Shown: positions 14,511-64,000 of the stretch, one piece after another
How positions within the stretch are numbered: position 1 is the first letter of the stretch
Layout of the letters: every line of letters begins with the position of its first letter
Assembly: GCA_965217935.1 (NCBI GenBank)
Contig: OZ244581.1
Span: 3,257,970 to 3,321,969, forward strand
Length of the DNA: 64,000 nt
Reading direction: 5' to 3'
Source: Acetobacteraceae bacterium
GTDB taxonomy: Bacteria > Pseudomonadota > Alphaproteobacteria > Acetobacterales > Acetobacteraceae
Made by a program: the position numbers and the translations under genes
The notes under the pieces: generated by a model
Database searches by the model: none
The model's input: the letters and a program-made list of their open reading frames with translations, nothing else
Told to the model about the DNA's origin: nothing

Positions 14511-14526
14511 CCTTGAAGGAGACATC

Positions 14527-15546
14527 ATGAGTTTTGATCGACTGACCCGGCGCGGCGTCCTGCTGGGCGCGGGCGCCGGCGCGCTTCTGGCAAGCACGGC
14601 GAGGGCCGCGGGGCCGGGCAGCGTCAACGCCGGCTTCTTCACCGAAACCAAGCCCTCGATGATCGCCAAGGGCAACGGCTGGTTCGAGCAGGACACCGCC
14701 GCCCGCATCAACTGGACCGAGATGGGCAGCGGCGCCGACATCAACGCCGGCATCGCCGCCGGCAGCCTCGATATCGGCCTCGGCGCAGGCTCCGTGCCGG
14801 TGGCGGCCGGCATCAGCCAGGGACTGGGCTACAAGGTCGTCGCCATCATGGACAACATCGGCCCCGGCGAGGACATGGTGGTCAAGACCTCCGAGAACAT
14901 CGCCAAGCCGTCCGACTTCAAGGGCAAGAAGGTGGCGACCCCCTTCGGCTCCACCAGCCATTTCCGGCTGCTGGGCTTCCTGAAGACCAACGGCCTGACC
15001 CAGCGAAACGTGACGGTGCTGGACATGAAGCCGGCCGCGATCCAGGCGGCCTGGTCCCGCGGCGACATCGACGCCGCCTACGTCTGGCCCCCGGCGCGCA
15101 GCAAGCTCGTGGAGGACGGCGGCACGCTGTATCCCACTTGGGACAAGCTGGACAAAGCGGGCTACGTCATCGCCGACCTCATCATCGTGCGCGACGAGTT
15201 CGCCCGGCAGTATCCCCAAGCCGTGGTCGGCTTCCTCAAGGCCTACGACCGCGCCTTGACCCTGTGGACGCAGAAGCCGGAGGAGGCGGCCCGGATCGTC
15301 GCCCAACAGACCGGGGTGACGCCGGAGGTGGCGATGGCGGACATGAAGCAATACGATTTCATCCCCTTCCGCGCGCAGGAGGGCAAGGAGTGGCTCGGCA
15401 AAACCGGCGCGCCGGGCCAGTTCGCCAAGGTGCTGCACGACACCGCCGAGTTCCTGGTCGAGCAGCGCAGCATCCGCAGCGCGCCGGGTCTGGACGCATT
15501 CCAGCAGGCGATCGACACCGAGTACCTGCAAAAGGCGATCGGGTGA
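14527..15546 (+). CDS. ABC substrate-binding protein, taurine/aliphatic-sulfonate (TauA/NMT1)-like
   Basis: Tat/Sec-like N-terminus 'RRGVLLGAGAGALLASTARA'. NMT1/TauA-like 'INWTEMGSGADINAGIAAGSLDIG'. Confidence 0.75.
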   Translation: MSFDRLTRRGVLLGAGAGALLASTARAAGPGSVNAGFFTETKPSMIAKGNGWFEQDTAARINWTEMGSGADINAGIAAGSLDIGLGAGSVPVAAGISQGLGYKVVAIMDNIGPGEDMVVKTSENIAKPSDFKGKKVATPFGSTSHFRLLGFLKTNGLTQRNVTVLDMKPAAIQAAWSRGDIDAAYVWPPARSKLVEDGGTLYPTWDKLDKAGYVIADLIIVRDEFARQYPQAVVGFLKAYDRALTLWTQKPEEAARIVAQQTGVTPEVAMADMKQYDFIPFRAQEGKEWLGKTGAPGQFAKVLHDTAEFLVEQRSIRSAPGLDAFQQAIDTEYLQKAIG

Positions 15547-24253: not shown

Positions 24254-24328
24254 TGGTGCCGGGTGAGGGGATCGAACCCCCGGCCTTCGGTTTACAAAAC
24301 CGCTGCACTACCGCTGTGCTAACCCGGC
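24254..24328 (-). tRNA. tRNA-Thr (anticodon UGU), CCA encoded
   Basis: Manual fold of the reverse complement: acceptor GCCGGGT/ACCCGGC, D arm GCAC/GTGC, anticodon loop TTTGTAA, T arm GGGGG-TTCGATC-CCCTC. 75 nt. Confidence 0.9.
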
Positions 24329-49159: not shown

Positions 49160-51235
49160 ATGCAGCACGCTCGTCTCGCCGTCGACATCGGGGGCACGTT
49201 CACCGACCTTGCCATCGAGCACGGCCCGGCCCGGACCACGATGAAGGTCCTGACCACGCCCTCGGAGCCGGAGCGCGGCGTGCTGGACGGGATCGCGGCC
49301 TTGCTGCGTCAGGCCGGGCTTGCAGCGGCCGACATCGGCATCTTCGTCCACGGCACGACGCTCGCCACCAACGCGATCATCGAGCGCAAAGGGGCACGGA
49401 CGGCGCTGGTCACCACGCAGGGGTTCCGCGACGTGCTGGCGCTCGGCAACGAGAGCCGCTACGACCAGTACGACCTAAACATCGTGCTGCCGCAGCCGCT
49501 GGTTCCGCGCCATCTTCGCCTGCCGGTGCCGGAGCGGCTGGACAATCTGGGCGAGGTGCTGCTGCCGCTTGACGAGGGCGCGGTCGCGGCGCTGGTCCCG
49601 ATCCTGCGGCGCGAGGCTGTCGAGAGCGTCGCGGTCGGCTACCTGCACAGCTTCGCCAACCCGGCGCATGAGCGGCGCACGCGCGATTTGCTCAGGGCGG
49701 CCTTGCCGGACCTGGCCGTCAGCCTGTCGTCGGACGTCTCGCCCGAGATGCGCGAGTGGGAGCGGTTCAGCACGACGGCCGCCAACGCCTACGTGCAGCC
49801 GCTGATCAGCGGCTACCTCGGGCGGCTTGAACAGGGGCTTCGCGAGATCGGCGTCGAGGCGCCGGTGTTCCTCATGCTTTCCGGCGGCGGGCTGACGACG
49901 ATCGAGACGGCCCGCCGGTTCCCGATCCGGCTGGTCGAGAGCGGGCCGGCCGGGGGCGCTATCTTCGCCGCCGACATCGCGCGGACCTGCGGGCTGGAGC
50001 GGGTGCTCAGCTTCGACATGGGGGGAACCACCGCCAAGATCTGCCTGATCGACGCGTTCCAGCCGCAAACCTCGCGCACGTTCGAGGTGGCCCGCGTCGG
50101 GCGGTTCAAGAAAGGCTCCGGGCTGCCGCTGCGGATTCCGGTGATCGAGATGGTCGAGATCGGCGCCGGCGGCGGCAGCTTGGCGCACCTTGATGCGTTG
50201 GGCCGGATCGCGGTCGGCCCGGAGAGCGCCGGGGCGGACCCGGGGCCAGCCTGCTATGGCCGCGGCGGCGAGCGGCCCGCGGTGACGGACGCCAACCTGG
50301 CGCTCGGCCGGTATGAGCCGGCGCGGTTCGCCGGCGGCACGATGGCGCTCGACATGGCCGCGGCGGAACGGGCGCTGGACGCCGCGGTCGGCGGGCCGCT
50401 CGGGCTGGCGCCCGGGATCGCGGCGTTGGGCGTGATCGAGATGGTGGACGAGAACATGGCCAACGCCGCGCGCGTCCATGCCATCGAGAGCGGCAAGACC
50501 TATGCCGGGCGCACGCTGATCGCGTTCGGCGGCGGCGGGCCGGTCCATGCTTACCGGGTTGCCGAGAAGGTGGGGATCGGCCGCGTGCTCGTGCCGGTCG
50601 GCGCGGGCGTCGGCAGCGCCATCGGCTTCCTGCGCGCTCCGGTCGGCTACGAAGTGGTGCGCAGCCTGTATCAGCGGCTCGGCACGTTCGAGGCGGACGC
50701 CGTCAACGAGCTGCTCGCCGGCATGGCTGCCGAGGCCGCGGCGGCGGTCGCGCTCGGCAGCTTCGGCGCGGACACGGTGGAGACGCGCACGTTATACATG
50801 CGCTATGTCGGGCAAGGGCATGAGATCCCGGTGCCCTTGCCGGTCGAGGCGCTGACCGAGGCCGGCGTCGGCAGGCTGCGTGCCGCGTTCGATGCCGCGT
50901 ATGCGCGGTTTTACGACCGGCCGGTGCCGGGTTCGGATGTCGAGATCATGAGTTACGCGGTGACGGTCAGCACCGTGGCCGGCGCCGTGCCGTCGCCGGC
51001 GCTGCCTGAACCCGTGCCCGCTCCGCCCCGGCGGCAAGCGGTACGCGATACGGCGACCGGCGAGGTGGCGGACTGGACGGTGCATGACCGATCCAGCCTC
51101 GGTGCGGACGCCCGCGTTGCCGGCCCGGCCATCATCGCCGAGGATGAAACGAGCACGCTGGTCGGGCCCGGCTGGGTTGCCGCCATCGACGCGCGCGGCG
51201 TCCTGGATATGCGGCGGGATTTGAAGGGCGGCTGA
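49160..51235 (+). CDS. hydantoinase/oxoprolinase family protein, A (HyuA-like) subunit
   Basis: 'LAVDIGGTFTDL', 'HGTTLATNAIIERKG', 'SFDMGGTTAKI', 'GGGGPVHA'. No B-subunit gene follows. Confidence 0.85.
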   Translation: MQHARLAVDIGGTFTDLAIEHGPARTTMKVLTTPSEPERGVLDGIAALLRQAGLAAADIGIFVHGTTLATNAIIERKGARTALVTTQGFRDVLALGNESRYDQYDLNIVLPQPLVPRHLRLPVPERLDNLGEVLLPLDEGAVAALVPILRREAVESVAVGYLHSFANPAHERRTRDLLRAALPDLAVSLSSDVSPEMREWERFSTTAANAYVQPLISGYLGRLEQGLREIGVEAPVFLMLSGGGLTTIETARRFPIRLVESGPAGGAIFAADIARTCGLERVLSFDMGGTTAKICLIDAFQPQTSRTFEVARVGRFKKGSGLPLRIPVIEMVEIGAGGGSLAHLDALGRIAVGPESAGADPGPACYGRGGERPAVTDANLALGRYEPARFAGGTMALDMAAAERALDAAVGGPLGLAPGIAALGVIEMVDENMANAARVHAIESGKTYAGRTLIAFGGGGPVHAYRVAEKVGIGRVLVPVGAGVGSAIGFLRAPVGYEVVRSLYQRLGTFEADAVNELLAGMAAEAAAAVALGSFGADTVETRTLYMRYVGQGHEIPVPLPVEALTEAGVGRLRAAFDAAYARFYDRPVPGSDVEIMSYAVTVSTVAGAVPSPALPEPVPAPPRRQAVRDTATGEVADWTVHDRSSLGADARVAGPAIIAEDETSTLVGPGWVAAIDARGVLDMRRDLKGG

Positions 51236-51358: not shown

Positions 51359-53734
51359 TTGGCAGATAATTACCGTTTCGTTGGCGGAGAGGCATTCGTT
51401 CCCTCGCGCGTTTTGCGGGAGGGATGGCAATACCGCTCCGCGCCGCCCAGCGACGCGGCCCCGCCCGCGGACGGCATTTGGCAACCGGTCATGCTGCCCG
51501 ACGACGTGGGTATCGCGGAGAGTGACGCGCTCGATCACTGGTTCCGGCTTGATGCGGAGCTGCCCGGCGGGTCAACGCTGGAGTTCCGCGGCCTCGCGAC
51601 GCTGTCGGAGGTTTGGCTCGACGGCGCGCTGCTGTGCCGTCACGAGACCATGTTCCGCCCGTTGCGGATAACGGTTCCGGGTTCCGGCGGCGGTCGGCTC
51701 GATCTATGCTTCCGGGCGCTCGCGGCAAGCCATCGGCGCATGAAGCGTCCGCGCTGGCGCAACCGGCTGGTCGAGGATGAGACGTTCAGGGGGGTGCGGA
51801 CATCGCTGCTCGGGCGCATGGCGCGCACGGGGCGGCCGGTTATCGGGCCGTTCCGCCCGGTTGTGCTGCACCCGCCGGGCGCGGCGCCGCGCCTGGAGCG
51901 GCTGCATGCGACGCTGCAGGATGGCGCCGGAATGATCGAGGTATGGTTCTCAGGGCCGAATGCGGCCCGGTGCGCCGGGTTCGTCACGGCGGGCGGCCAG
52001 CAGGCGCGGCTGGAGCCGCAAGGCGAAGGTTTAGTTGCCAGGCTGACGCTACCCGATCCGCCGCTTTGGTGGCCGCATACGCATGGCGAACCGACCTTGG
52101 TCGAGGTGACGGCTTCGCTCGATGGGCAGGAGATGCCGCTGGGCAGGACCGGATTCCGCTCGGTTGAGCGAGCGGGCCACGGCGGGCTGGCCCTGCGCGT
52201 CAACGGCGAGACGGTCTTCTGCCGCGGCGCATTATGGAGTGGTGGCGGCGAGGCGACGCTGCCGACGGCGCGGAGCGGCGGCATCAACATGCTCCGCGTT
52301 CCTGGATATGCCGTGTACCCGGAACGGAGCTTTTTCGAGGCGTGCGATAAGCTAGGGTTACTAGTCTGGCAGGATTTTATGTTTGCCCGAGCGGATTACC
52401 CGCGCAATTCCTCTTTCCTGGAGGAGGCAGGCGCGGAGGCGCGGTGGTTTCTCGATGAAACGGCAGGCTCGCCATCTTTGGCAGTATTATGCGGCGGACA
52501 TGAGGTCACTCAAGCTGCCGCGATGGCTGGCCGCCCTGTTGCGGAGTGGCAACACCCTTTGTTTAACGAGATCCTGCCGGATTCGGTTGTTTCTCTTCGG
52601 CCGGACGTTGTCTATGTGTCGAACGCGCCTTTCAATGAGCAACGCGATGGACTGCCGCCCTTCGCCGTGTCCGCTTCGGTGACGCACTACTTCGGCATCG
52701 GAGGGTATTTGCGGCCGTTATCGGATTCCGCCGGGGTTCGCTTCGCTGCCGCCTGCCTGGCGTTCGCCAACCCGGAAGACCCGGACGAATGCCGGGCGCT
52801 CTCGCCCGTTCCCGGCGATGCCGGCTGGCAGCAGGCGGTCCCGCGCGACCTCGGCGCGTCTTGGCATTTCGACGATGTGCGGGATCATTACGTCGCGACG
52901 CTGTTTCAGCAGGACCCCGCGTCGCTGCGCCGGACCGACCCCGAGCGCTGGCTCGCATTTGGGCGTGCGGCCGTGGCTTTGTCGATGCAGTCGGCCTTCG
53001 CCGCATGGCGCACCGATCCGCGCTGCGGCGGCGGTTTGGTGCTGTCGTGGCAGGATCACGCGCCTGGACCTGGCTGGGGGATCATGAGCAGCAACGGACG
53101 TCCGAAATCTGCCTTTCATGCGCTCGCCGGCGTGCTTGGACCGATCCAGGCGCTGCTGGTCGATAAGGGATTGGACGGGGTGGTCGCGCACCTGTTCAAC
53201 GAAACGGCCCGGCCCCGCCTGGTGCGCCTGCAACTCCGCGGCCTCACGCCGGGCGGGGCCGTTCAGGTATTGGCCGAGACCGAGCATGCGCTCGATGCAC
53301 GCGGTCATGCCGTGCGTCCAGCGACGGCGCTGATGGGCCGCTTCCAGGACCTGGCCGGGAGCTGGCAGTTCGGTCCGCCGCCGTACAGGGCGTTGAGCGC
53401 TTGTCTCAGCGATGTCGAAAGCAAGGCAGTCTTGTCCGAAGCCACGATCTTCCCCGTCAGCCCCTTGCTGCCGCGCGAGGATGTTGGGCTGGAGGCGGTC
53501 CTGTCGCCATGCGAACCTTGGGCGATCACGCTTCACGTGAAACGCTTCGCCCAATTCGTCATGATCGATGCGGGCGGCTACGTGCCGGAGACCAACCATC
53601 TGCACCTTTGGCCCGGCGAGACGCGGCGGATCGCCTTGCGCGCGAGCGCCTCGGCCCAGCTCTCCTCGATGCCAAGCGGAAGCGTTGCCGCGCTCAACGG
53701 CACGGCCGTGGCTTACTTTCAGGCAGCCGCATGA
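51359..53734 (+). CDS. glycoside hydrolase family 2 (beta-mannosidase-like) homologue, no signal peptide
   Basis: TTG start. 'WWPHTHGEPTL', 'GINMLRV', 'FFEACDKLGLLVWQDFMFA', 'LCGGHEV', 'THYFGIGGY'. The expected nucleophile segment reads 'RFAAACLAFANP'. Confidence 0.65.
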   Translation: MADNYRFVGGEAFVPSRVLREGWQYRSAPPSDAAPPADGIWQPVMLPDDVGIAESDALDHWFRLDAELPGGSTLEFRGLATLSEVWLDGALLCRHETMFRPLRITVPGSGGGRLDLCFRALAASHRRMKRPRWRNRLVEDETFRGVRTSLLGRMARTGRPVIGPFRPVVLHPPGAAPRLERLHATLQDGAGMIEVWFSGPNAARCAGFVTAGGQQARLEPQGEGLVARLTLPDPPLWWPHTHGEPTLVEVTASLDGQEMPLGRTGFRSVERAGHGGLALRVNGETVFCRGALWSGGGEATLPTARSGGINMLRVPGYAVYPERSFFEACDKLGLLVWQDFMFARADYPRNSSFLEEAGAEARWFLDETAGSPSLAVLCGGHEVTQAAAMAGRPVAEWQHPLFNEILPDSVVSLRPDVVYVSNAPFNEQRDGLPPFAVSASVTHYFGIGGYLRPLSDSAGVRFAAACLAFANPEDPDECRALSPVPGDAGWQQAVPRDLGASWHFDDVRDHYVATLFQQDPASLRRTDPERWLAFGRAAVALSMQSAFAAWRTDPRCGGGLVLSWQDHAPGPGWGIMSSNGRPKSAFHALAGVLGPIQALLVDKGLDGVVAHLFNETARPRLVRLQLRGLTPGGAVQVLAETEHALDARGHAVRPATALMGRFQDLAGSWQFGPPPYRALSACLSDVESKAVLSEATIFPVSPLLPREDVGLEAVLSPCEPWAITLHVKRFAQFVMIDAGGYVPETNHLHLWPGETRRIALRASASAQLSSMPSGSVAALNGTAVAYFQAAA

Positions 53735-53862
53735 TGCGCCGGTCGGCGATCTGCCTGCAGCGGCGCCGGGAGATCGGTCTTGTGCGAAGCCCGCACCGCA
53801 AGTCCGCCGTCTTAACCCGGGCTTAGTCTTTTCGTCGGATGGTGCTGAAGGAGTATTTGAAC

Positions 53863-54120
53863 ATGAGCGTCGATGTGTCCGAGAATACTGAGGTTGCGTT
53901 GCGGGAAGTATTGGCGGAGCTGCGGTTGAGCGGCCACGCGGTCGGGCGGAATGACGACCTCGCTGCCGCAGGCCTGACCTCGCTCGCAACGGTCGACCTC
54001 ATGCTGGCGATCGAGGACCGTTTCGCGATCGAGTTCCCGGAAACCATGCTGAACCGCCGGACATTCGCGACGCTCGCGAACCTGACCGCGGCGGTCGATA
54101 CGTTGCGGTCGTCGACATGA
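53863..54120 (+). CDS. acyl/aminoacyl carrier protein
   Basis: 85 aa. AAGGAG lies 8 nt upstream of the ATG. Phosphopantetheine-site-like 'AAGLTSLATVDLMLAIE'. Confidence 0.75.
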   Translation: MSVDVSENTEVALREVLAELRLSGHAVGRNDDLAAAGLTSLATVDLMLAIEDRFAIEFPETMLNRRTFATLANLTAAVDTLRSST

Positions 54121-55307
54121 CAGCTTTGATGCCGCGGATGCCGGCGGCTGGCAGCGTGGCATCGGAGGCGCGGCGGATCGCGCGGGACTTCGCGATGCCG
54201 GCGGCCCAAGCGGTCGATGCCGAACGGCGTCTCCCGTTTGAGGCAATCGCCGCGTTGCGAGAGGCCGGATTGCTGGGCGCCGCGGTGCCGCGCTCGCATG
54301 GCGGGCTCGGGACAGGGATCGCCGACATTGCCGCTGCCTGCTTCGAGCTTGGCCAGGGCTGCTCGAGTGCCGCGATGGTGTTCGCGATGCACCAGATTCA
54401 AGTCGCGTGCCTGTGCCGCCATGCCGGCGATGAGCCGTGGCAGTCGATGTTCCTTCGCCGGGTCGCTGACGAAGGGCTGCTGCTCGCCTCAGGCACGACC
54501 GAGGGCGCGACCGGCGGCGACGTGAGGCAAAGCAACTGCGCCATGCTTGCAGACGATGGTTCGGTGCGGGTCGAGAAGGCGGGTTGCGTGATTTCCTATG
54601 CCGCCGCCGCCGATGGCGTCCTGATTACGGCCCGGCGTGACCCGGACGCGCCGGGCAACGACCAAGTTCTGCTCGTCGCAGAACGGTCGCAGCTCGAGTT
54701 AGAAGAGAAGGGAACTTGGGACACGCTGGGGATGCGCGGCACCGATAGCCGGGGCTACCGCCTGCGAGCCGTATGCCGCCCCGGGCAGGTCATGCCGGCG
54801 CCCTATGCCGTCATCTCGGCCGAGACGATGTTGCCGGTATCGCATATCGTCTGGGCGTCGCTTTGGCTCGGCATCGCGACGGACGCTTGCAACCGGGCGC
54901 GCCGCGCTGTTCGCGATCGTGCCCGAAAGGCGCCCGGCCGGACGCCGGCGGGCGCTGGCCGACTGGCTGAAACGCTCGTGATGATGCAGAGCGCCCGGGC
55001 AACGCTGATCGAGGCGGTGCACCGTTACGAGGCGGCGCTGGCTGAGCCTGAGCGGCTCGGCTCGATCTCGTTCGGCTTAGCGATGAACAGCCTAAAAGCG
55101 GCGGCGAGCACGGCCTCGATTCAGATTGTGAGCCACGCGATGCAAGCGATCGGCCTGGCGGGCTATCGCAACGACACGCCCTACAGCGTCGCCCGGCACC
55201 TGCGCGACGTCCACTCGTCGGTGCTGATGATCGGCAACGACCGCATACTCGCCAACAACGCCAACATGGTTGCAGCTTATCGCGGTGAGGAGCCGTTATT
55301 CGCATGA
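54117..55307 (+). CDS. acyl-CoA dehydrogenase family flavoprotein
   Basis: 396 aa, ACAD three-domain layout. 'LASGTTEGATGGD' and C-terminal 'ARHLRDVHSSVLMIGNDRIL'. Its ATG overlaps the carrier-protein stop (ATGA). Confidence 0.8.
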   Translation: MTALMPRMPAAGSVASEARRIARDFAMPAAQAVDAERRLPFEAIAALREAGLLGAAVPRSHGGLGTGIADIAAACFELGQGCSSAAMVFAMHQIQVACLCRHAGDEPWQSMFLRRVADEGLLLASGTTEGATGGDVRQSNCAMLADDGSVRVEKAGCVISYAAAADGVLITARRDPDAPGNDQVLLVAERSQLELEEKGTWDTLGMRGTDSRGYRLRAVCRPGQVMPAPYAVISAETMLPVSHIVWASLWLGIATDACNRARRAVRDRARKAPGRTPAGAGRLAETLVMMQSARATLIEAVHRYEAALAEPERLGSISFGLAMNSLKAAASTASIQIVSHAMQAIGLAGYRNDTPYSVARHLRDVHSSVLMIGNDRILANNANMVAAYRGEEPLFA

Positions 55308-56200
55308 GCGGTCTGGTTTCAGAGATGGTGTCGGCCGGGCTGATGCTGCCGAGTGCGGCGCAGGGCGTGGTGGCGTGGTCAGGCGATTTCCAATCGGTCG
55401 TGACCGGGCTTGAACGACTGCTTGACCAGGAGGCGGCCGGGCAGGGTATGGAGGTGGTGCGCTTTCCGCCGATCATGCCGCGCAAACACTTCGAGACCAG
55501 CGGCTACATGAAGGGCTTCCCGCAGCTTGCCGGCACGATCCACTGCTTTTGCGGCACGGAGGCCGACCACCGGACGCTGCTCCGCTGCCTGTCCGAAAGC
55601 GAGGACTGGACTGGCCAACAGCGCGCGAGCGACGTGGTGCTCACCCCGGCTGCATGCTACCCGGTTTACCCGCTCCTGGCGCAGCGGGGGCCGCTGCCCG
55701 AGGGTGGCCTGACGATCGACTTGATGTCGTGGTGCTATCGAGAAGAGCCGTCCGAGCATCCGGCGCGAATGCGCAGCTTCCGCCTGCGCGAATTCGTACG
55801 GGTCGGGTCGGCGGACGATATCAAGGCGTTCCGTACGCATTGGATGGCGAAAGCTCAAGACATCGCGGCTCGACTGGGTCTGAGGGCAGAAATCGATATT
55901 GCCAATGACCCGTTTTTCGGTCGGTCTGGCAAGCTCCGTGCCGGGATGCAGCGTGAGGAGCAGGCAAAGTTCGAGCTGCTGATCCCGATTGAAGGGAACT
56001 CGCCGAGCGCCTGCGCGAGTTTCAACGATGCCAAGGATCTGTTCGGCGGCCTGTTCGGTTTGCAGCAGTCGGATGGCACGACGGCGCGAACCGGATGCGT
56101 TGGGTTCGGGATCGAGCGGATGGTGCTGGCCATGTTCCGCCAGCACGGGGTGAGCGTCGCCGATTGGCCGATCGAGGTGCGGAAGGCGCTCGACCTCTGA
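55304..56200 (+). CDS. amino acid:[carrier protein] ligase (class II aaRS catalytic-core homologue lacking a tRNA-binding domain)
   Basis: 298 aa. Motif-2-like 'FRLREFVRVG', motif-3-like 'GCVGFGIERM', 'LTPAACYPVY'. Its ATG overlaps the ACAD stop (ATGA). Matches the SerRS-like carrier-protein ligases of Bradyrhizobium/Agrobacterium as I recall them. Confidence 0.8.
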   Translation: MSGLVSEMVSAGLMLPSAAQGVVAWSGDFQSVVTGLERLLDQEAAGQGMEVVRFPPIMPRKHFETSGYMKGFPQLAGTIHCFCGTEADHRTLLRCLSESEDWTGQQRASDVVLTPAACYPVYPLLAQRGPLPEGGLTIDLMSWCYREEPSEHPARMRSFRLREFVRVGSADDIKAFRTHWMAKAQDIAARLGLRAEIDIANDPFFGRSGKLRAGMQREEQAKFELLIPIEGNSPSACASFNDAKDLFGGLFGLQQSDGTTARTGCVGFGIERMVLAMFRQHGVSVADWPIEVRKALDL

Positions 56201-57222
56201 TGCAGTGCCGTATCACCACTACCGAGCCCGAAGCATTTGCGCTCTCATCGCTGAACAATTCTTCGCGGACTTGGCCGGAGTCCAACTGCTATCTCGACCT
56301 CTGGATCGGGCTGCTGCGAACGGTTGGGCAGGATGCCCGGCCGCTGATGGGGGCTGCGACCGGGATGCGTTGGGAGGGCGATCACTTCACCTTTATCAAG
56401 CCGAATGCCGCAGACCTGTTTGATCTTGCTGGCGTGGTAATGCACGAATTGGCGCTTTGGGACGAGGTCGAGGCCCAGGTCGCGACCCAACTTACAGCCG
56501 GATCGGCGCCGTTGCCGGAAGTGGATTCGTTCTTTCTTCCGGACACCGGCGACTACCAGCGTCAGCACAGCAAGACGACGATCGGGATCGTCGCGATCGA
56601 CACGACTGCCCGGGTTCTGGATTACGTCCATAATGGCGGGCTGTTTCGCTTGAGCGGCGATGACTATGCGGGCGTATTAAGCCTGGCTCCTCATGCCCGA
56701 ATGCTGTTTCCGTATGCGGAACTGGCGCGCCTGCCCTCGGCAGCTCCCAGTCTCGCGAGCCAACACGCCGCGGCTCGCCTCGTGTTGGGGCGGCTCAACG
56801 CCATGCGCGGTCCAGGCAATCCGGTTGAGCAGTTCGCGGCGGCGCTGCCCTTGCTTTTCGAGCGGCCGGGACTCGCGAATAAGGTCCACGCCCTATGCTT
56901 CAACACGGCCCGGCAACTTGGCGCCGGGTTCGGCCTATTGGCTGAGCACCTGGCCTGGCTTGGCAGCAATGCCGAGGCGGCAGAGCGGCTGTCCGACCAA
57001 GCGAAGACGTTCCAATTTCAGCTTGCGCGGGCCGCCCGGCGCGGGCGCTATGACCCGGCGCTGGCGATTGCGTTGAATGGCATGGCCGAGAGCTGGTCTG
57101 AAGTTGCTGCCGTTCTGGCGCTGGCCGCGTCAAGTGGCATGAAGCCGGAGCGGGCGAGCCAAACCATCGCTGCATTTTGGCGTTCTGGGGAAATGGTAAT
57201 CGATGTTGAGGGTCACGGTTGA
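56200..57222 (+). CDS. DUF1839-like protein
   Basis: 340 aa from 'MQCRITTTEPEAF'. 'WPESNCYLDLWIGLL' near the N-terminus. Its start overlaps the ligase stop (TGATG). Family assignment is from memory. Confidence 0.5.
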   Translation: MQCRITTTEPEAFALSSLNNSSRTWPESNCYLDLWIGLLRTVGQDARPLMGAATGMRWEGDHFTFIKPNAADLFDLAGVVMHELALWDEVEAQVATQLTAGSAPLPEVDSFFLPDTGDYQRQHSKTTIGIVAIDTTARVLDYVHNGGLFRLSGDDYAGVLSLAPHARMLFPYAELARLPSAAPSLASQHAAARLVLGRLNAMRGPGNPVEQFAAALPLLFERPGLANKVHALCFNTARQLGAGFGLLAEHLAWLGSNAEAAERLSDQAKTFQFQLARAARRGRYDPALAIALNGMAESWSEVAAVLALAASSGMKPERASQTIAAFWRSGEMVIDVEGHG

Positions 57223-57707
57223 TGGTTGAGAAAGTTGGCCGCAGAACGGCATTGCAACTCACGGCCACGGCTTTGTTCGCAATGCCGCTTGCGGCCTGTG
57301 TTGGCGTGGCTTACGGGCCTGTCCCTGTAGCAGGCCCGTATCAGCGATACGACCTTTCAGCCGATGTCTTGTTTGATTTCGGCAGCGCGAAATTGCGGTC
57401 GGGCGCAGACTCTGCACTGCAGGCGATATTGGCGCAAATGCGCAACGTCTACCCATACCCGGCAATCCGCGTTGAAGGCTACACCGACAGCGTCGGTAGT
57501 GTCGCAACGAACGACGTTCTTTCAACGGCGCGAGCTGAAACAGTGAAACGATGGTTGATTGCGGCAGGCATCCCGCCACAAGTCATCACGGCGCAAGGGT
57601 TTGGAGAGCAGCGGCCGGTCGCGCCCAACACGCTTCCCGATAGGGCTGACAATCCCGAGGGCCGGGCGCAAAACCGGCGTGTCGAGTTGATCGCATCTCC
57701 GGCTTAG
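57222..57707 (+). CDS. OmpA-family peptidoglycan-binding lipoprotein
   Basis: Lipobox 'MPLAAC'. OmpA_C motifs 'DVLFDFGSAKL', 'VEGYTDSVGS...NDVLSTARAETV', 'NRRVEL'. Its start overlaps the upstream stop (TGATG). Confidence 0.85.
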   Translation: MVEKVGRRTALQLTATALFAMPLAACVGVAYGPVPVAGPYQRYDLSADVLFDFGSAKLRSGADSALQAILAQMRNVYPYPAIRVEGYTDSVGSVATNDVLSTARAETVKRWLIAAGIPPQVITAQGFGEQRPVAPNTLPDRADNPEGRAQNRRVELIASPA

Positions 57708-57779
57708 GGCCGGGCTAAACCGCCCTGGATTTGTCGAAGACGGATGTTATTGAGTTATGCCCGTAAGGTGGGCTTCTCA

Positions 57780-58683
57780 GAGCCTGTTTGATCACGCGGT
57801 GATGTATTCGTGGCGGTGATAGGCCCGTAGCAGGCGATGGCAGTTGGCGATGGCCACGGCGTCCTCAGCGGCAGCCGGGCTTTGCTCCAGGTTTGCGGGT
57901 GAGGCGGTGCCAGCGGTTACTCAGCATGCCAAACGTGGCCTCGATGCGCCAGCGGCTGGAAGCCTTTCGCATCCGCGTCGCGGATCGTGACCTGCACGTC
58001 CACGATGTGGTTCTGGGTGGCTTGCGACATGCGCGGCCCTATGTAGATGCCATCCACCTTGACACGCTCGACGGCCCAGCCGTTCCCAGCCGCAAGCGCC
58101 AGCAGCGCAGCCACTGACTGCGTGCCGTGCGCGTTGGCGGGACCGTGACCAGGATCGCCAGCACGAAGCCCAGCGAGCACGTGAGCACATGGCGCTTGAT
58201 GCCGCGCACCGTCTTGTTGCCGCCCACGTCGCGCGGTCCCGCCTGCGGACCCGAAGGCACGCGTTGGCTGTCGAGGATAGCTGTCGCCGGTTCCGGGTTC
58301 CGGCCCTGCTTGGCACGCACCGCCCGCGGGAGCAGGGCGGCGATGTCGGACCAGATCGCGTCGGTTCGGAAACGGTCGTGTCAAGTTCGCACGGTTTGCC
58401 AAGTTCGCACGGTTTGCCAGGGGCCAAACTCCTTGGGCAGAAAGCGCCACGGGCAACCCGCCTTCTCCAGATACAGACAAGCATTGATCATCTCGCGCAG
58501 ATCTGCCGTCAGCGTGGCATAACCGCGCAGAACCGGCTCAATTGTCTGCCATTCTGCATCCGTCAAGTCACTCGGGTCGCGCCGACCGTCATCCTTGTAT
58601 CGCGCCCGCGCTTCGTCAGTCCACATTGCGCGCCTCTATGTCAATGGATGACGCGCGACTGGCTCAAATCGTCAAACAGGCCC
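57780..58683 (-). mobile_element. degraded IS5-family (IS427-group-like) element
   Basis: Terminal inverted repeat gcctgtttga / tcaaacaggc. OrfA-like 'DLTDAEWQTIEPVL...LPKEFGPWQTV'. DDE pieces sit in three frames ('AILDSQRV...KTVRGIKRHVL', 'VKVDGIY', 'IEATFGMLSNRWHRLTR'). Confidence 0.7.
58382..58417. repeat. perfect 18-bp tandem duplication inside the IS5-like orfA
   Basis: caagttcgcacggtttgc occurs twice (58382-58399 and 58400-58417), which doubles 'WQTVRT'. Confidence 0.9.
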
Positions 58684-58686
58684 TAA

Positions 58687-60133
58687 CATTACAGTTGCAT
58701 TCTCTGTGGAGTTCTTAATCGATGGGCAACCATGATTCGCAGGGTCGTGGATGTCTCTGGCATCGATCGAGACGACGTTGGAGTTCTGGGCGCCTGGGCA
58801 TTGCGATGTAAAGCCGCGGATGCGCGGGCTGTTCACGCAGGAGCGGGTCGCGGTCTCGGGTGGGCTGTTCCTGGACGGGTTGCTGGGCGAGGAGCGGCGC
58901 AAGACCGGCTGGATGCGCGCCGAGGCGGCGGGCGATCCGGGGCCGTGGCGGCAGCAGGCGGTGCTGGGGCGAGGCCGGTGGAATGCGGACGCGCTGCGCG
59001 ACATCGTGCGGGACGACGCGCTCGAGACGCTGGCTGACCCGGATGCGGCGCTGGTGATCGACGAGGCCGGGTTCCTCAAGCAGGGGCGGGCCTCCTGCGG
59101 GGCGGGTCGGCAATGCACCGGGTCTGCCGGCAAGATCGCCAACTGCCAGATCGGGGTGTTCGCGGCCTACGTTTCGCGCCATAGCCACGCCTTCATCGAC
59201 CGCGCGCTGTATCTGCCCAAGAGTTGGACCGGCGACCCGGCCCGCATGGCCGCCGCCCACGTCCCTCCCGCGACCGGCTTTGCGACCAAGCCCCAGCTGG
59301 CCACGGCGATGATCGAGCGGGCACTGGCGGCCGGCGTGCCGTTCGCGTGGGCGGCGGCCGATGCGGTCTATGGCGTCGGCGCCGTCGAGCAGCGATTGCG
59401 CCGGGCCGGCAAGGGTTACGTGCTGGGTGTCGCCTCGGCGCACCGGTTCAACTCGTGGGGCAAGCCGCGGCGGGTCGCGGGCGCCGCGGCCATGATCGCG
59501 GGCGCCGTCCCGGCCGAGGCGTGGCAGCGCTTGTCAGCCGGGGCGGGAACAAAGGGGCCGCGGCTGCACGACTGGCGCTGCATCGAACTCGCCGACCTCA
59601 AGGCCGACCGCCCGAAGGCACACGATGCCGCCCCCGCGACGCTCTGGGCCCGGGGCCTGCTGATCCGGCGCCGCATCGCCGGCGGCGACCTGGCGTTCTT
59701 GTCGACCTGGCGCCCGGCGGAAACAGGGATCGCCGCCCTGGTCAGCGTCGAGGGGCATCGCTGGTCGATCGAGGACAGCTTCGAGACCGCCAAGACCGAA
59801 CTCGGCCTCGACTACAACGCCGGTTCAGCGAAGCTGGGAGGCGGCCCTGGCACGGCTGGCGCCGGCACGTCTGCCTGGTCATGCTGGCCTTCGCAAGGCT
59901 GGCGGCAATCCGGCGCCAGGCCAATGCAGCACTCCCAAAAAAATGGACGCCGCCCAGACGCAATCGCCACCAAGCCTGATCCGCTGGTCGCTGCAGGAAA
60001 TCCGCCAGATCGCAAACCGCCCGGCGCAGAGGCGGATCCAGCCGGCCCACGTCATCGCATGGTCACTCTGGCGCAGGGCGCATCAAGCGATCGCACAACG
60101 CTCGCATCTATAGGAAGAAATGCAACTGTAATG
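58687..60133 (+). mobile_element. IS701-family-like element, copy 1 (transposase broken by two frame changes)
   Basis: 15-bp terminal IR cattacagttgcatt / aatgcaactgtaatg. Transposase 'LVIDEAGFLKQG...RQCTGSAGKI...YLPKSW...GHRWSIEDSFETAKTELGLD'. 'WHGWRRHVCLVMLAFA' lies in frame -1 and the tail 'IRWSLQEIRQI...WSLWRRAHQ' in frame -2. Confidence 0.75.
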
Positions 60134-60249
60134 CTAGCTATCAGGTTGCGGAACATTGTTGGGACCCGGTCGGATTGGCTATTATGGAGCATGCCTACCG
60201 GTTTCAGCGTCTAACGACCGTTTCAGGACAAGGGGGACCCACGCTGCGC

Positions 60250-61270
60250 ATGCACCCGAATGCCCGCACCACCCCTGCTGCCCGCGCCGAAATCGCGCGC
60301 TCGACGGAACCCAGCGGCGCAGTCGCCAAGCGCTATGGCGTCAGCGCCGAAACCGTGCGCAAGTGGCGCGCGAGGCGCCGATGACTGCCTCGACCGCTCT
60401 GCACGCCCGCACAACCTGCCCTGGAAGGCGAGTGAGGAGGAGCGCGCCATCGCCTGCACCCTCCGGCGCGCAACCAGCGTCCCGCTCGACGACCTCACCG
60501 TCGTTGTCTGCCACGTCCTGCCGCACCTCAACCGCGACAGCGTCTGGCGCATCCTCAAGGCCGAGGGCCTGAACCACCGGCCGAAACCTTTCTCCGAACG
60601 CCCCGCCAAAGGCCAGGGCGCCTTCCGCGACGACGACCTCGGCGTCGTGCGCATCGACATCAAGCGCCTCCCTCCGCAGCCTTTCCAACCGCCATGCGGC
60701 TGGAACCTTGGGCTGCTCCGCCCAAACTGCAAAGCAGCGACGGCGAGCGGCGCAAGCGCTTCCTGTCTGTCGCCATCGACCGCTGCTCGCGCTCTGTCCA
60801 CCTCGCGGTCAAAGACAACGAAACCGAGCAAAGCGCCATCGCCGTCCTGCGCGAGGCTGCTGCTGCCTTCCCATTCCAACTCACCCATGTGCTGACCGGC
60901 AACGGCAGCGGCTCTCACGCCAGCCTTCGCCAAAGCCTGCGCCGACCTGGGCGCGCAGTATCGGCACACTCGCCCCCGCGCGCCCCAGACCAACGGCATG
61001 GTCGAGCGCTTCAACGGCCGGGTCAGCAGCGAAGCGCTCGGCATCAACATCTGCTCGCACCGCGCCCTGGAACAGCTGCTGCGCGGCTTCAACACGGCCT
61101 ACAACGCCCGCCGCCAGCGCGTGCTGGACGGCAGGACGCCAAACCAGGCCGTCGCTGAGCGCCTTAAAGCCAAGTCCGAACTCGCCAACCCGGCGCCGCA
61201 CGGACGCGCAGGCCCCTGCGACGCCACCAAAGCGCGCCTTATCGCAGACGCTGCCAAGGAGGCTTCACAA
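60250..61270 (+). pseudogene. IS481-family transposase gene with at least three frameshifts
   Basis: 'MHPNARTTPAARAEIARS...VSAETVRKW', 'DRSARPHNLPWKAS', 'RKRFLSVAIDRCSRSVHLAV...LTGNGS' and 'RPRAPQTNGMVERFNG' alternate between two frames. Confidence 0.7.
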
Positions 61271-61275
61271 CCGGA

Positions 61276-61392
61276 CATGCGGGAGGTTGCGCACCGTCTG
61301 GGGCGGGCGGCGTCCGCGATCTCGCGCGAGCGGCGTCGCAATGCGGCCGCGCGGGGTGGCGGGCTGGAGTATCGGGCCACCACGGCGCTCTA
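61276..61392 (+). pseudogene. IS30-family transposase N-terminal HTH fragment
   Basis: 'MREVAHRLGRAASAISRERRRN...YRATTA' resembles the IS30 'REIARRLGRSPSTISRELRRN' motif. Cut off by IS701-like copy 2. Confidence 0.4.
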
Positions 61393-62783
61393 GTACTACA
61401 GCCGTAGTTGAGCGTTGTGTCTGTCCGGAGGCGGGTGGAATGACGACGAAACGGGATGTTTGCGGGTGGGCTGCGGGTTTGGATGAGGTTGCTGGGCGGA
61501 TTGCGCCGCGCTTCGGGCGTGCCGAGCCGCGGCGTCGGGCAGGCGCTTATCTGCGCGGGCTGCTGGCTCCGGTTGAGCGCAAGAACGGCTGGCAGTTGGC
61601 CGAGGTGGCTGGCGACGCGACGCCGGACGGGGTGCAGGAGTTCCTGAGCCGCGCGCGCTGGGACGCGGAGGCGGTGCGCGACGACCTGCAAGCCTACGTG
61701 GCGGAGCGCCTGGCCGACCCTGGAGCGGTGCTGGTTCTGGACGAGACCGGCTTCCTGAAGAAAGGGACGAAGTCGGCTGGCGTCCAGCGGCAGTATACGG
61801 GAACCGCGGGCCGCATCGAGACCGCGCAAGTGGGCGTGTTCCTGGGCGACGCAGGGCGGCACGGCCGCGCCCTGATTGACCGAGCGCTTTACGTGCCCAA
61901 GGAGTGGGCCGGGGACGACGCGCGGTGCCGCGAGGCGCGCATCCCGGCTGACGTGGAGCGTGTGACCAAGCCCAAGCAGGGCCTGGCGATGCTGGAACAC
62001 GCCCGCGTGGCAGGCGTGCCCTTCTCCTGGGTCGCTGGCGACAGCGTGTATGGGGCGGACAGCGCCATCCGCCGGTGGGCGGAGCGGCGCCGGCGCGGCT
62101 ACGTGCTGGCGGTCACGTCTGGCCAGCGCCTGGCCATGCGCCCGGTCACGACCTGGATCGAGGGGCTGCCGGACGCGGCGTGGCAGCGACTCAGCGCAGG
62201 CGACGGCGCCAAGGGACCGCGGCTATACGACTGGGCGCACCTGCCTTACAACGGCGGGGCGCCGGGCTTTGCCTGTGCGCTCCTGGTCCGGCGCAGCATT
62301 GCTGATCCCGAGGAGGTCACGTTCTACCTGACCCATGCGCCCCAGGACACCGCGCTGGCCGAACTGGTGCGCGTCGCGGGCACGCGCTGGTCCATTGAGA
62401 GCCTGTTCGAGCAGGCCAAGGGCGAAGTCGGCCTGGACCAGTATGCCGGTTCAGCGAAGCTGGGAGGCGCTCCTGGGTCGGGTGGCGCCGCCACGTCACC
62501 TTGTCCATGCTGGCCCTGGCCTACCTCGCCGTGGTCCGCCGCAGCGCCGAACAGGGCGCTGCCGGGGGGTGCGGACCCGGCAAGCCTCCAAGCGGACCTG
62601 TTGCCGCTCACAGTTCCAGAGATCCGGCGGCTCATCTCAGCCATCGTGCTCAAGCAACCATCCAGGCCCGATGCCGCCCTGCGGTGGTCAACCTGGCGCA
62701 GGCGCCACCAGCAGCGATCCAAGCGCGCCCACTGGCGTAAACGAACACGGGGACATTCAGTTGAAACCCGGCTGTAGTACTAG
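61390..62783 (+). mobile_element. IS701-family-like element, copy 2
   Basis: 15-bp perfect terminal IR ctagtactacagccg / cggctgtagtactag (the exact ends are ambiguous within a CTAG). ORF from the ATG at 61440 to 62777. 'LVLDETGFLKKG...RQYTGTAGRI...YVPKEW...GTRWSIESLFEQAKGEVGLD'. The 'WVGWRRHVTLSMLALAYL' motif lies in frame -1. Confidence 0.75.
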
Positions 62784-62791
62784 AGCGGTTT

Positions 62792-63430
62792 TCATTTAAG
62801 TCCGGCGAGCACGTATCCTGAGTGCATGAAGTAGCCGCGTGCGTCCTGGGGCGTGATGGCGGCGAGTGCTGGTCCGAGCGCCTTGTGCAGGGCGTCTGCT
62901 GTGCGTGCGGCGGCTTGGCGCAGCTTGCCTTTCAGCTTGGCCCAGCCTGGCTCAATGGGGTTCAGGTCTGGGCTGTAGGGAGGCAGGTAACGGCAGGCAA
63001 ACCCCGAGGCGTCCAGCGCCGCCCGCACCGCGGGCGTTTTGTGCGCGGCCAGGGTGTCCATCACCAGCACGGCGTCAGGCCGCACTTGGCGCAGCTTAGG
63101 CAGCAGCGCCTTGTCGAGAAAGGCCGTGAACACGGCGGCGTCGGTTGCGGCCTCGACCGACATGGCGGCCACGATGCCGTTTACGCCAAGCGCGCCTAGC
63201 ACGGTCACGCGCTTCCAGCGGCCCGCGGGTGCTGTGCCCAGAGCGCGTTGCCCGCGCGGGGCGCGGCCATGCAGGCAGGCCATGTTGGTCAGCGCGCCGC
63301 ACTCGTCCAGGAACACCAGCCGCTCCGGCGCGATCCCTTCCACCCCGGCCTGCGCGTCCGTGCGCCAGGCGGCCCGGGCGCGTGCCACGTCGTCACGGTC
63401 CTGCTCGGCCGCGCGCAGCGTGCGCTTTTT
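62792..63430 (-). CDS. IS630 transposase DDE ORF (+1 frame relative to the HTH ORF)
   Basis: 'LVFLDECG', 'VLVMDTLAAHK', 'LPPYSPDLNPIEPGWAKLK'. The frame is readable from the A6 run ('KKRTLRAAEQDRDDV...'). Confidence 0.7.
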   Translation of the reverse strand, partial: KKRTLRAAEQDRDDVARARAAWRTDAQAGVEGIAPERLVFLDECGALTNMACLHGRAPRGQRALGTAPAGRWKRVTVLGALGVNGIVAAMSVEAATDAAVFTAFLDKALLPKLRQVRPDAVLVMDTLAAHKTPAVRAALDASGFACRYLPPYSPDLNPIEPGWAKLKGKLRQAAARTADALHKALGPALAAITPQDARGYFMHSGYVLAGLK

Positions 63431-63797
63431 TCCAGCTCCACCTCATGCGCGCCAGCGCCCGGCGCACGGTGGACACGTGAACCAGCACCTTGGCCTCCTC
63501 GGCCAAGCGGTCCCGGCACTGCGCCAAGGTCAGGTGGTTGGCGCCTTCCAGCACCCGCCGCAGCGCCGCCTCTGCCTTGCCTGCAATCACCGGCTTGCGG
63601 TGGCCGCCCATCTTGCCCGCCACGCGCCGCCCGTCCCGCCGAAGCGCCCGCGCCCAGTCCTGCACCGTCGAGCGGCCCACCGCGATCCGCCGGGCCACAG
63701 CCGACATCGCTTCTCCCGCCTCAACCGCCGCCAAAACCCGCTCCCGCAAGTCCGCCGAATACGCACCAGCCAGCAAAGCCATCCCAAAACCAGGCAT
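63393..63797 (-). CDS. IS630 transposase N-terminal (HTH) ORF
   Basis: 'YSADLRERVLAAVEAGEAMSAVARRIAVGRSTVQDW'. Ends shortly after an A6 run. Confidence 0.7.
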   Translation of the reverse strand: MPGFGMALLAGAYSADLRERVLAAVEAGEAMSAVARRIAVGRSTVQDWARALRRDGRRVAGKMGGHRKPVIAGKAEAALRRVLEGANHLTLAQCRDRLAEEAKVLVHVSTVRRALARMRWSWKKAHAARGRAGP

Positions 63798-63850
63798 ATG
63801 GGAACAAATCGCCGGACCTCAACGCAAATCGCTCTAGTGCCCTGAATCGC

Positions 63851-64000
63851 TTATAATGCCGGGTATAAGCGCTTGAGCTTAATGCGTGCGTCGGCGGTGG
63901 TGAATTGCCAATCGGCCTTGGTGTGGTTCTTGTTGCGGCTATCTTGCCATGCGGCGACCTCGTCGATCAGGGTCTGCTTTTGGGGAATGCGCCGGCCGAG
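63851..64000 (-). CDS. partial transposase C-terminus (IS630-like DDE-endonuclease type), continues beyond the window
   Basis: 'LGRRIPQKQTLIDEVAAWQDSRNKNHTKADWQFTTADARIKLKRLYPAL*', a tail typical of a common alphaproteobacterial transposase class as I recall it. Confidence 0.5.
   Translation of the reverse strand, partial: LGRRIPQKQTLIDEVAAWQDSRNKNHTKADWQFTTADARIKLKRLYPAL

Follow-up and report, generated by a model that had tools for sequence, protein, structure and literature searches.

A conserved carrier-protein module around an aminoacyl-tRNA synthetase-like ligase in Acetobacteraceae, and its possible role in a thiotemplated side-chain pathway with a sugar-type acceptor

We analysed a 64,000-nucleotide (nt) stretch of contig OZ244581.1 from an Acetobacteraceae bacterium (hereafter the window), which carries at positions 53863-57707 five genes, all on the plus strand, for a carrier protein (CP), a flavoprotein of the acyl-CoA dehydrogenase (ACAD) fold, an amino acid:[carrier protein] ligase homologous to aminoacyl-tRNA synthetases (aaRSs), a DUF1839 protein and an OmpA-type lipoprotein. 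The first four of these products, together with a GH2-like protein and usually a fused double alpha/beta-hydrolase, make up a conserved module. The reading that we prefer, and that we hold with slightly less than even confidence, is that this module is a side-chain pathway of the thiotemplated kind, independent of nonribosomal peptide synthetases, which would operate in the cytoplasm and serve a sugar-type acceptor. The five genes are chained by overlapping stop and start codons (ATGA, ATGA, TGATG and TGATG, in order, as read from the sequence). A first, sequence-only reading of this DNA had described the same open reading frames and junctions, and the families that it had assigned to the five proteins agree with the results of our hidden Markov model and structure-sequence searches.

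A scan that took one genome per species gave 593 confirmed loci, and the best 80 of these 593, onto which we mapped the window proteins, are the basis of the counts given here. The CP-ACAD-ligase core was found at all 80 loci, the CP itself being detected in 78, and the ACAD-like gene sat between the CP and ligase genes at every one of them. DUF1839 was found at 78 of the 80 and the GH2-like protein at about 73-77, mostly directly after DUF1839. These loci span Alpha- and Betaproteobacteria. At 46 of them we also found the double alpha/beta-hydrolase, a fused protein of about 600 amino acids (aa) whose halves resemble the NCBIfam families hydr2_PEP and hydr1_PEP (“exosortase A system-associated”), with scores below the cut-offs. 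The neighbourhood, whose conservation had been proposed as a check on the significance of the operon, is therefore strongly conserved, and the module genuinely includes the GH2-like gene (51359-53734), which is not so for the gene of the OmpA-type lipoprotein. The existence of this neighbourhood was already known: GH2, ligase, ACAD and acyl carrier protein genes around DUF1839 are listed in the supplement of a 2023 survey of the papain superfamily (PMC10318531).

We also examined four closer relatives beyond the 80 loci, the contigs L081, L083, L084 and L086. L081 is 92.6% identical to the window at the nucleotide level, with a ligase 96% identical, and DUF1839 is 82%, 64% and 61% identical to that of the window in L083, L084 and L086, respectively. 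In L084 and L086 the genes for the GH2-like protein, the double hydrolase (6075-7691 and 6114-7682, respectively), the CP, the ACAD-fold protein, the ligase and DUF1839 follow each other as one overlapping operon, without OmpA; in a further locus, L090, the double hydrolase lies at 13406-15184. The order in L081 and L083 is HyuA, GH2-like, CP, ACAD, ligase, DUF1839 and OmpA. The double hydrolase is missing from these two contigs and from the window, and has been lost in the window lineage. All six genes and HyuA are under purifying selection when compared with both relatives, the ratios of nonsynonymous to synonymous substitution rates (dN/dS) being 0.06-0.26. Farther away, an actinobacterial locus of the Skermania type (L087, 4957-13255) splits the same set of six proteins between two divergent units, to which it adds a phosphopantetheinyl transferase (ACPS) of its own; its neighbours are cutinase, BON, MMPL and LysX-type genes. 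Two loci carry CP-ACAD-ligase without DUF1839 or the GH2-like protein, L043 (6580-10696, Dongia soli) and L045 (6514-8882, Ralstonia pickettii). In the first of these the double hydrolase comes directly after the ligase, as if it were able to replace the off-loading step.

The 298-aa product of the third gene (55304-56200) had been taken for an amino acid:[carrier protein] ligase, and this assignment is borne out by a score of 415 bits against the NF005479 equivalog (cut-off 357), over residues 6-297 of 298, and by its matches to the Bll0957 entries of the Protein Data Bank (PDB), at E 4e-83 for 3mey and 3e-84 for 4h2w. The protein consists of the class II aaRS catalytic core alone, without a tRNA-binding domain. 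Models of seryl-tRNA synthetase (SerRS) match it over this catalytic core only (E 1e-15, with a resemblance to the methanogen-type enzyme), and the possibility that it is a fragment of a true SerRS, which had been raised beforehand, did not materialise. Its motifs TPAACYP (114), YREEPS (145) and TGCVGFG (263) align with PAACYP, REPS and TGCV of Bll0957. The Zn ligands that had been pointed out for verification in these motifs are intact as Cys118, Glu148 and Cys265, and are invariant in 19 diverse homologues.

The CP (85 aa, 53863-54120; PF00550, E 1e-8) reaches 79.9 bits against the NF005480 model, whose cut-off is 72, and in the PDB it is matched best by 4h2w_C, an aminoacyl carrier protein, and by Atu2571 (2jq4), with an E-value of 2e-11. 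As anticipated for a dedicated carrier protein, it possesses a modifiable serine: Ser40 in AAGLTSLATV, the attachment site for phosphopantetheine, is kept in at least 95% of 63 homologues and aligned with that of Atu2571 (AAGLSSFASV). The window pair thus resembles the characterised ligases Bll0957 and Atu2573 with their CPs Bsr0959 and Atu2571 in equivalog family, Zn ligands, lack of a tRNA-binding domain and use of a dedicated CP, and we estimate by eye from the alignment that the ligase is roughly 55-60% identical to Bll0957. The structures of these ligases and CPs are PDB 3mey, 4h2s-4h2y and 2jq4, Atu2571 having been crystallised with Bll0957. The numbering of Atu2571 and Atu2573 would fit the CP-ACAD-ligase order of the window. 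According to Mocibob et al. (2010, 2013), aaRS-like ligases of this type reportedly charge Gly or Ala onto their carrier proteins.

The window clade differs from Bll0957 and Atu2573 in the residues that neighbour the Zn ligands. Its ligase carries 24 replacements at positions with a conservation of 90% or more among the other loci, including Y143W, H147E (adjoining the Zn ligand E148), Y242D, H243A and A264G (adjoining C265), which change the motifs CFRHEPS, NYHQD and TACVGFG into CYREEPS, NDAKD and TGCVGFG, respectively. Because these clade-specific replacements affect pocket residues near the Zn site, a Gly/Ala specificity cannot be assumed for the window ligase, and the amino acid used in this clade may differ from those of the characterised enzymes. 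Other members of the module have changed as well: at positions at least 90% conserved, the window clade shows 15 replacements in the flavoprotein, 29 in DUF1839 and 34 in the GH2-like protein. These coordinated, clade-specific replacements suggest a shifted substrate or chemistry.

The flavoprotein (396 aa, 54117-55307) aligns over its full length with ACAD structures. Its ACAD N and C domains score above the Pfam cut-offs, and the middle domain stays below (19.4 bits, cut-off 33.3). Across 80 homologues, the position of MCAD E376 is occupied by Ile (LMIGNDRI) and that of IVD E254 by Ser242, and where MCAD has its conserved Arg256 there is an invariant His243. The protein reaches none of the NCBIfam equivalogs, its best score being 85 bits against a cut-off of 600. 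When the family profile was compared with the PDB, true ACADs came first (1e-28), closely followed by two amino-sugar N-oxygenases, DnmZ (6e-23) and KijD3 (3e-21), and by DszC (3e-19), a monooxygenase.

Since the flavoprotein gene is fixed between those of the CP and the ligase, its product would act on the tethered aminoacyl group. ZmaG and ZmaI are ACAD-fold enzymes that act on a seryl-acyl carrier protein. The ACAD fold is also common to the window protein, the L-prolyl-peptidyl carrier protein (PCP) dehydrogenases PigA and RedW, and the N-oxygenases DnmZ, KijD3 and ORF36. An assignment as a prolyl-PCP dehydrogenase was rejected, on the scores against the corresponding models (NF045652 / NF053553; 46 bits against a cut-off of 650 for the RedW type and 45 bits against one of 500 for PigA) and on the absence of the catalytic residues. 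The window gene lies directly between the CP and loader genes, and its product is far below the RedW cut-off; the analogy with prolyl-carrier-protein dehydrogenases is unproven.

The DUF1839 protein (56200-57222; PF08893, E 1e-74, 252 bits) has a candidate nucleophile, Cys30, located in WPESNCY (WPETNCY in the family), and the family invariants are C30, D33, E107, D109, D115, K125, H144 and D155. An AlphaFold2 model built on 38 sequences (pLDDT 92.4, pTM 0.88) consists of an alpha/beta domain and, after it, a long bundle of helices, with Cys30 at the N-terminus of a helix. In a Foldseek search of the PDB, this model matched AziU2/U3 (E 2e-7) and CtaG (E 5e-6 to 2e-5, TMq 0.57-0.60, about 310 aligned columns), the two sets of matches together having a TMq of 0.54-0.60 over about 310-350 columns. 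Ordinary papain-like proteases were far behind, with a TMq of 0.29 for staphopain. At the sequence level, BtrH_N gave weak hits in three of the 38 DUF1839 members, the best at E 0.028.

CtaG, BtrH and AsbE are experimentally demonstrated carrier-protein-dependent transacylases (PMC7183216, PMC12865890). CtaG takes the acyl group from the carrier-protein thioester onto its own Cys before an amide is formed, and with its structural relatives BtrH and AsbE the group goes to a free acceptor, which is an aminoglycoside for BtrH and spermidine for AsbE (PMC7183216, PMC12865890). DUF1839 shares with the CtaG-like enzymes (CtaG of closthioamide, BtrH of butirosin, AsbE of petrobactin and MllDE) a papain-like N-terminal domain, a helical C-terminal region and a Cys located at the N-terminus of a helix, and its gene adjoins those of a carrier protein and its loader. 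However, the His and Asp positions appear rearranged, sequence similarity is limited to the weak BtrH_N hits, and the loader is an aaRS homologue in place of the ATP-grasp enzyme or AMP-ligase of the CtaG-like systems. From the predicted fold and the genomic context we infer that DUF1839 is an off-loading transacylase. The idea that it may off-load the aminoacyl group had been put forward from the letters of the sequence, and the fold similarity to CtaG now lends it real, if model-based, support.

The GH2-like protein (791 aa, 51359-53734; PDB 5n6u, E 2e-24) belongs to a family whose profile can be aligned over its whole length with beta-mannosidases, at E 2e-83 with 5n6u and 1e-78 with BtMan2A (2vjx). 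When the profile is aligned with the 2vjx chain, the invariant Glu382 (CGGHE in the window, CGGSE in the family) falls on chain residue 437, and the near-invariant family Glu465 (RFAxECLAF) on chain residue 530. With an offset of 25 residues, which is consistent for both, we take these to correspond in BtMan2A to E462, the acid/base, and E555, the nucleophile. The acid/base Glu of beta-mannosidases such as BtMan2A and 5n6u is thus shared everywhere and the nucleophile Glu is shared with the main family, whose members look like active retaining glycosidases.

In the window, however, codon 465 (52751-52753) is GCC, for Ala, and Ala is also found in L081, L083, L084 and L086, the four relatives whose DUF1839 is 61-90% identical to that of the window. 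The window clade has also lost conserved acidic residues (E321P, E549A and E603K), and its GH2-like protein is probably not a retaining hydrolase. The gene is nevertheless under purifying selection in the window, with a dN/dS of 0.19 despite the loss of the nucleophile. The protein has neither an N-terminal hydrophobic segment nor a signal peptide, and its cytoplasmic location, together with the Ala at the nucleophile position and the lost acidic residues, sets it apart from the beta-mannosidases.

How might these proteins work together? In the scheme that we propose, the Zn-dependent ligase would first adenylate a small amino acid and load it onto the phosphopantetheine arm of Ser40, a step that has been shown for homologues. 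The ACAD-fold flavoprotein would then modify the tethered aminoacyl group, as its invariant synteny suggests, by dehydrogenation at a C-N or C-C bond, with an imino, 2-oxoacyl or dehydro species as the outcome, or by N-oxygenation. Judging from its fold, DUF1839 would take the acyl group onto Cys30 and hand it to a nucleophile on a free acceptor. This acceptor would most likely be a sugar, an amino sugar or a polysaccharide precursor, in view of the conserved adjacency and of the recurrent glycan genes, and the GH2-like partner would bind or process it, the version found in the window clade probably being a binding or presenting subunit.

A more specific form of this scheme is tentative and, in our estimate, doubtful as a whole. 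It holds that a pathway common to several phyla places a flavin-modified acyl group derived from Gly or Ala on an amino sugar or polysaccharide precursor, and that the window clade represents a derived form, with a remodelled ligase pocket and a GH2 partner maintained by selection without its nucleophile. In this form of the scheme, the partner would either be an acceptor-binding or acceptor-presenting subunit or take part in substrate-assisted catalysis on an N-acyl sugar.

The logic of these steps has a precedent in butirosin biosynthesis, where the 4-amino-2-hydroxybutyrate (AHBA) side chain involves the carrier BtrI, the loader BtrJ, BtrK, the flavoenzyme BtrO, BtrH for the transfer and BtrG for the deprotection. 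The role of BtrH in the transfer of this side chain has been described (PMC7183216). In both cases a free-standing CP is loaded, or would be loaded, with tailoring by a flavoenzyme while the group is tethered and transfer by a papain-fold protein, in butirosin to an amino sugar. The two systems differ in the enzyme families used for loading and tailoring; furthermore, no decarboxylase or gamma-glutamyl protection is evident in the window module, and its GH2-like protein and the double hydrolase are without butirosin counterpart. Looser analogues are AlmEFG, for Gly on lipid A, and DltABCD, for D-Ala on teichoic acids, which both bring a small amino acid from a dedicated CP to an envelope glycoconjugate, and the CP of the window is weakly similar to DltC. 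These two systems, however, use ANL-type adenylation and membrane transferases, have no flavoenzyme, and their transfer enzymes are unrelated to DUF1839. By analogy, the module would work most like the butirosin, CtaG and AsbE routes, with an aaRS-derived loader replacing the ATP-grasp or ANL enzyme.

A sugar or glycan acceptor is plausible, and a sugar-type acceptor is our best guess from the recurrence of glycan genes and the adjacency of the GH2-like gene. The locus of Rhizobium sp. 9140 has Wzx, GT4, GH5 and Wzz genes on one side and GT2 genes on the other; that of Methylobacterium radiotolerans has four GT4 genes, a Wzz-type protein and Acyl_transf_3; and L089 has a DegT-type sugar aminotransferase with a hexapeptide acyltransferase. 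Counting by similarity to a limited set of queries, up to 8 kb from the module and with no matched random control, we found at least one glycan-assembly gene at 28 of the 80 loci and at least two at 15. The genes around the window module serve housekeeping functions and transport; one Acyl_transf_3 gene lies 8 kb upstream, and there are insertion sequences downstream.

Several observations weigh against the pathway that we propose. The flavoprotein lacks both catalytic Glu bases of the canonical ACADs, and should glycine be the substrate, an alpha,beta-dehydrogenation would be chemically impossible. A profile search of DUF1839 against the PDB sequences gave nothing meaningful; the link to CtaG is one of fold, and we dropped a sequence-level tie to a solved structure for want of a profile match, the fold search alone being informative. 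The 2023 survey, which places DUF1839 in the papain superfamily, proposes a Cys-(Thr/Ser)-His site for it, to be compared with the Cys-His-Asp of CtaG (PMC10318531), and because of this site hydrolysis or some other chemistry is possible. Both the GH2 nucleophile and the double hydrolase are absent from the window, for which reason its copy of the module may work unlike those of the main family. With the limited query set, no glycan-assembly gene was found within 8 kb at 52 of the 80 loci, nor is there a glycan-gene cluster within the 64-kb window. Finally, a 2022 review gives Gly and Ala as substrates of the amino acid:[carrier protein] ligases and still lists their biological role as unknown, and in the literature that we searched we found no later functional assignment for the ligase, DUF1839 or the operon.

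As a rival explanation, the product could be a diffusible small molecule, such as an N-acylated polyamine, amino acid or glycoside. In that case a small amine would receive the group from DUF1839, just as spermidine does from AsbE, and the GH2-like protein and the hydrolase would serve the protection, deprotection or maturation of a glycoside. AsbE, BtrH and CtaG all act in secondary-metabolite pathways, the loci without a glycan-assembly neighbour are in the majority, and in L084 and L086 the operon is compact and self-contained. We nevertheless consider this explanation rather unlikely, though it survives better than the others: no transporter, regulator or additional biosynthetic gene accompanies the module consistently, the module is repeatedly embedded in exopolysaccharide (EPS) loci, and the hydrolase resembles families associated with exosortase A and EPS.

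The acceptor could also be a lipid or a lipoglycan, in the manner of the glycine that AlmEFG adds to lipid A or of the aminoacyl lipids. AlmE, AlmF and AlmG do provide a precedent for a glycyl-carrier protein as donor to lipid A, the actinobacterial locus lies beside MMPL, cutinase and LysX-type genes, and the authors of the papain-superfamily survey guessed at “fatty acid/phospholipid processing” (PMC10318531). But the module is without a membrane-bound acyltransferase (AlmG/LpxL-like or MBOAT), DUF1839 and the GH2-like protein are soluble, and the strictly conserved partner has the fold of a glycosidase, not that of a lipid enzyme, all of which makes a lipid acceptor improbable in our view.

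We would give as little weight to the proposal that DUF1839 is a thioesterase, acting in release or proofreading, so that a free modified acid (imino or 2-oxo) would leave a CP used as a scaffold for the flavoenzyme. The non-canonical site proposed for DUF1839 is compatible with such an activity, papain-fold enzymes are primarily hydrolases, and L043 and L045 do without DUF1839, the former with its double hydrolase next to the ligase. Against this, the bipartite fold of DUF1839 matches over its full length the transacylases and AziU2/U3, not hydrolases. Moreover, spending ATP to tether a simple acid and then free it would have no evident purpose, and the tight linkage with a sugar-binding fold would be left unexplained.

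What, then, of the lipoprotein gene at the end of the operon? Its product (161 aa, 57222-57707; PF00691, E 2e-19) is an OmpA-type peptidoglycan-binding lipoprotein with the lipobox LAAC, and a simple hydropathy check of the N-termini singles it out as the only product with a signal-peptide-like N-terminus, the module enzymes having no signal peptide. A tblastn search found no OmpA homologue at any of the 80 loci. Among the closer relatives the gene is present only where DUF1839 is at least 82% identical (L081 and L083) and is absent from L084 and L086. In L081 and L083, DUF1839 ends with TTT TGA, and a spacer of 41-42 nt separates it from the OmpA start; the window (57178-57222) has TTT TGG instead, which adds a tail of 14 residues (WRSGEMVIDVEGHG), the low-confidence end of the AlphaFold2 model, and creates the TGATG overlap with OmpA. 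The overlap exists because the TGA stop of the window DUF1839 became TGG and, as read from these sequences, it is a lineage accident, a recent stop-codon loss in the window only.

The sequence-only reading had seen in OmpA and GH2 together a pointer to an envelope or glycan acceptor; the OmpA half of this argument does not hold, while the GH2-like half is strengthened by the conservation of that gene and the recurrence of glycan genes. That OmpA is the functional partner in the delivery of an oxidised aminoacyl group to peptidoglycan or to a glycan of the outer membrane, as the stop/start overlap and the retention of OmpA in the two closest relatives might suggest, is the least probable of the explanations considered here and very unlikely, given the absence of OmpA from all 80 loci and from relatives with a DUF1839 as much as 61-64% identical, an overlap created by a change found in the window only, and the separation of an exported OmpA from cytoplasmic enzymes.

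The gene directly upstream of the GH2-like gene (49160-51235) encodes a HyuA-like protein (hydantoinase/oxoprolinase A) with all three Pfam domains. Its homologues were likewise found at none of the 80 loci by tblastn, and we rejected both this gene and OmpA as members of the module, since they are kept only in the closest relatives; they are local neighbours only. The HyuA-like gene is solitary, without an adjacent HyuB, and its occurrence at this position in the closest relatives L081 and L083 coincides exactly with the lack of the double hydrolase.

Downstream, synteny with L081 stops 9 nt past the OmpA stop codon, and 57716-63900 of the window is made of transposase genes and fragments, the long transposase-like open reading frames lying at 58751-60214, 60708-62777 and 62792-63388. 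L081 and L083 carry different insertion sequences at this same site and, because they do, the region looks like an insertion hot spot. Within the transposase-rich stretch there is also a perfect 18-bp tandem duplication (58382-58419), with 2.1 copies of CAAGTTCGCACGGTTTGC. At the other end of the operon, a Shine-Dalgarno-like GAAGGAG (53847-53853, plus strand), read directly from the sequence, stands 9 nt 5′ of the ATG of the CP gene. A scan for promoters and terminators gave matches at or below chance expectation and was uninformative on the operon boundaries. The sole Rfam match in the window was a tRNA gene (24257-24328, minus strand), unrelated to the module.

The amino acid:[carrier protein] ligases have been characterised structurally and kinetically since 2010, and their product and physiological role are still orphan. 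The module that surrounds them occurs in Rhizobiales, Acetobacteraceae and Burkholderiales as well as in actinobacteria, and plant symbionts and pathogens are among the bacteria that carry it. Our study contributes three points: the predicted fold of DUF1839 is that of CP-dependent transacylases, the conserved partners of the ligase operon are the GH2-like protein and the hydr2/hydr1_PEP-like hydrolase and not OmpA, and EPS genes recur around the module. The orphan is sharpened by these results and not solved, in the form of a testable scheme in which a small amino acid would be loaded, tailored by a flavoenzyme and transacylated to a sugar-type acceptor. If this scheme is true, it would represent a new way in which bacteria decorate their glycans with acyl groups, would add to the cases in which thiotemplated biosynthesis has recruited an enzyme of translation, and would thereby give the amino acid:[carrier protein] ligases a biological role.

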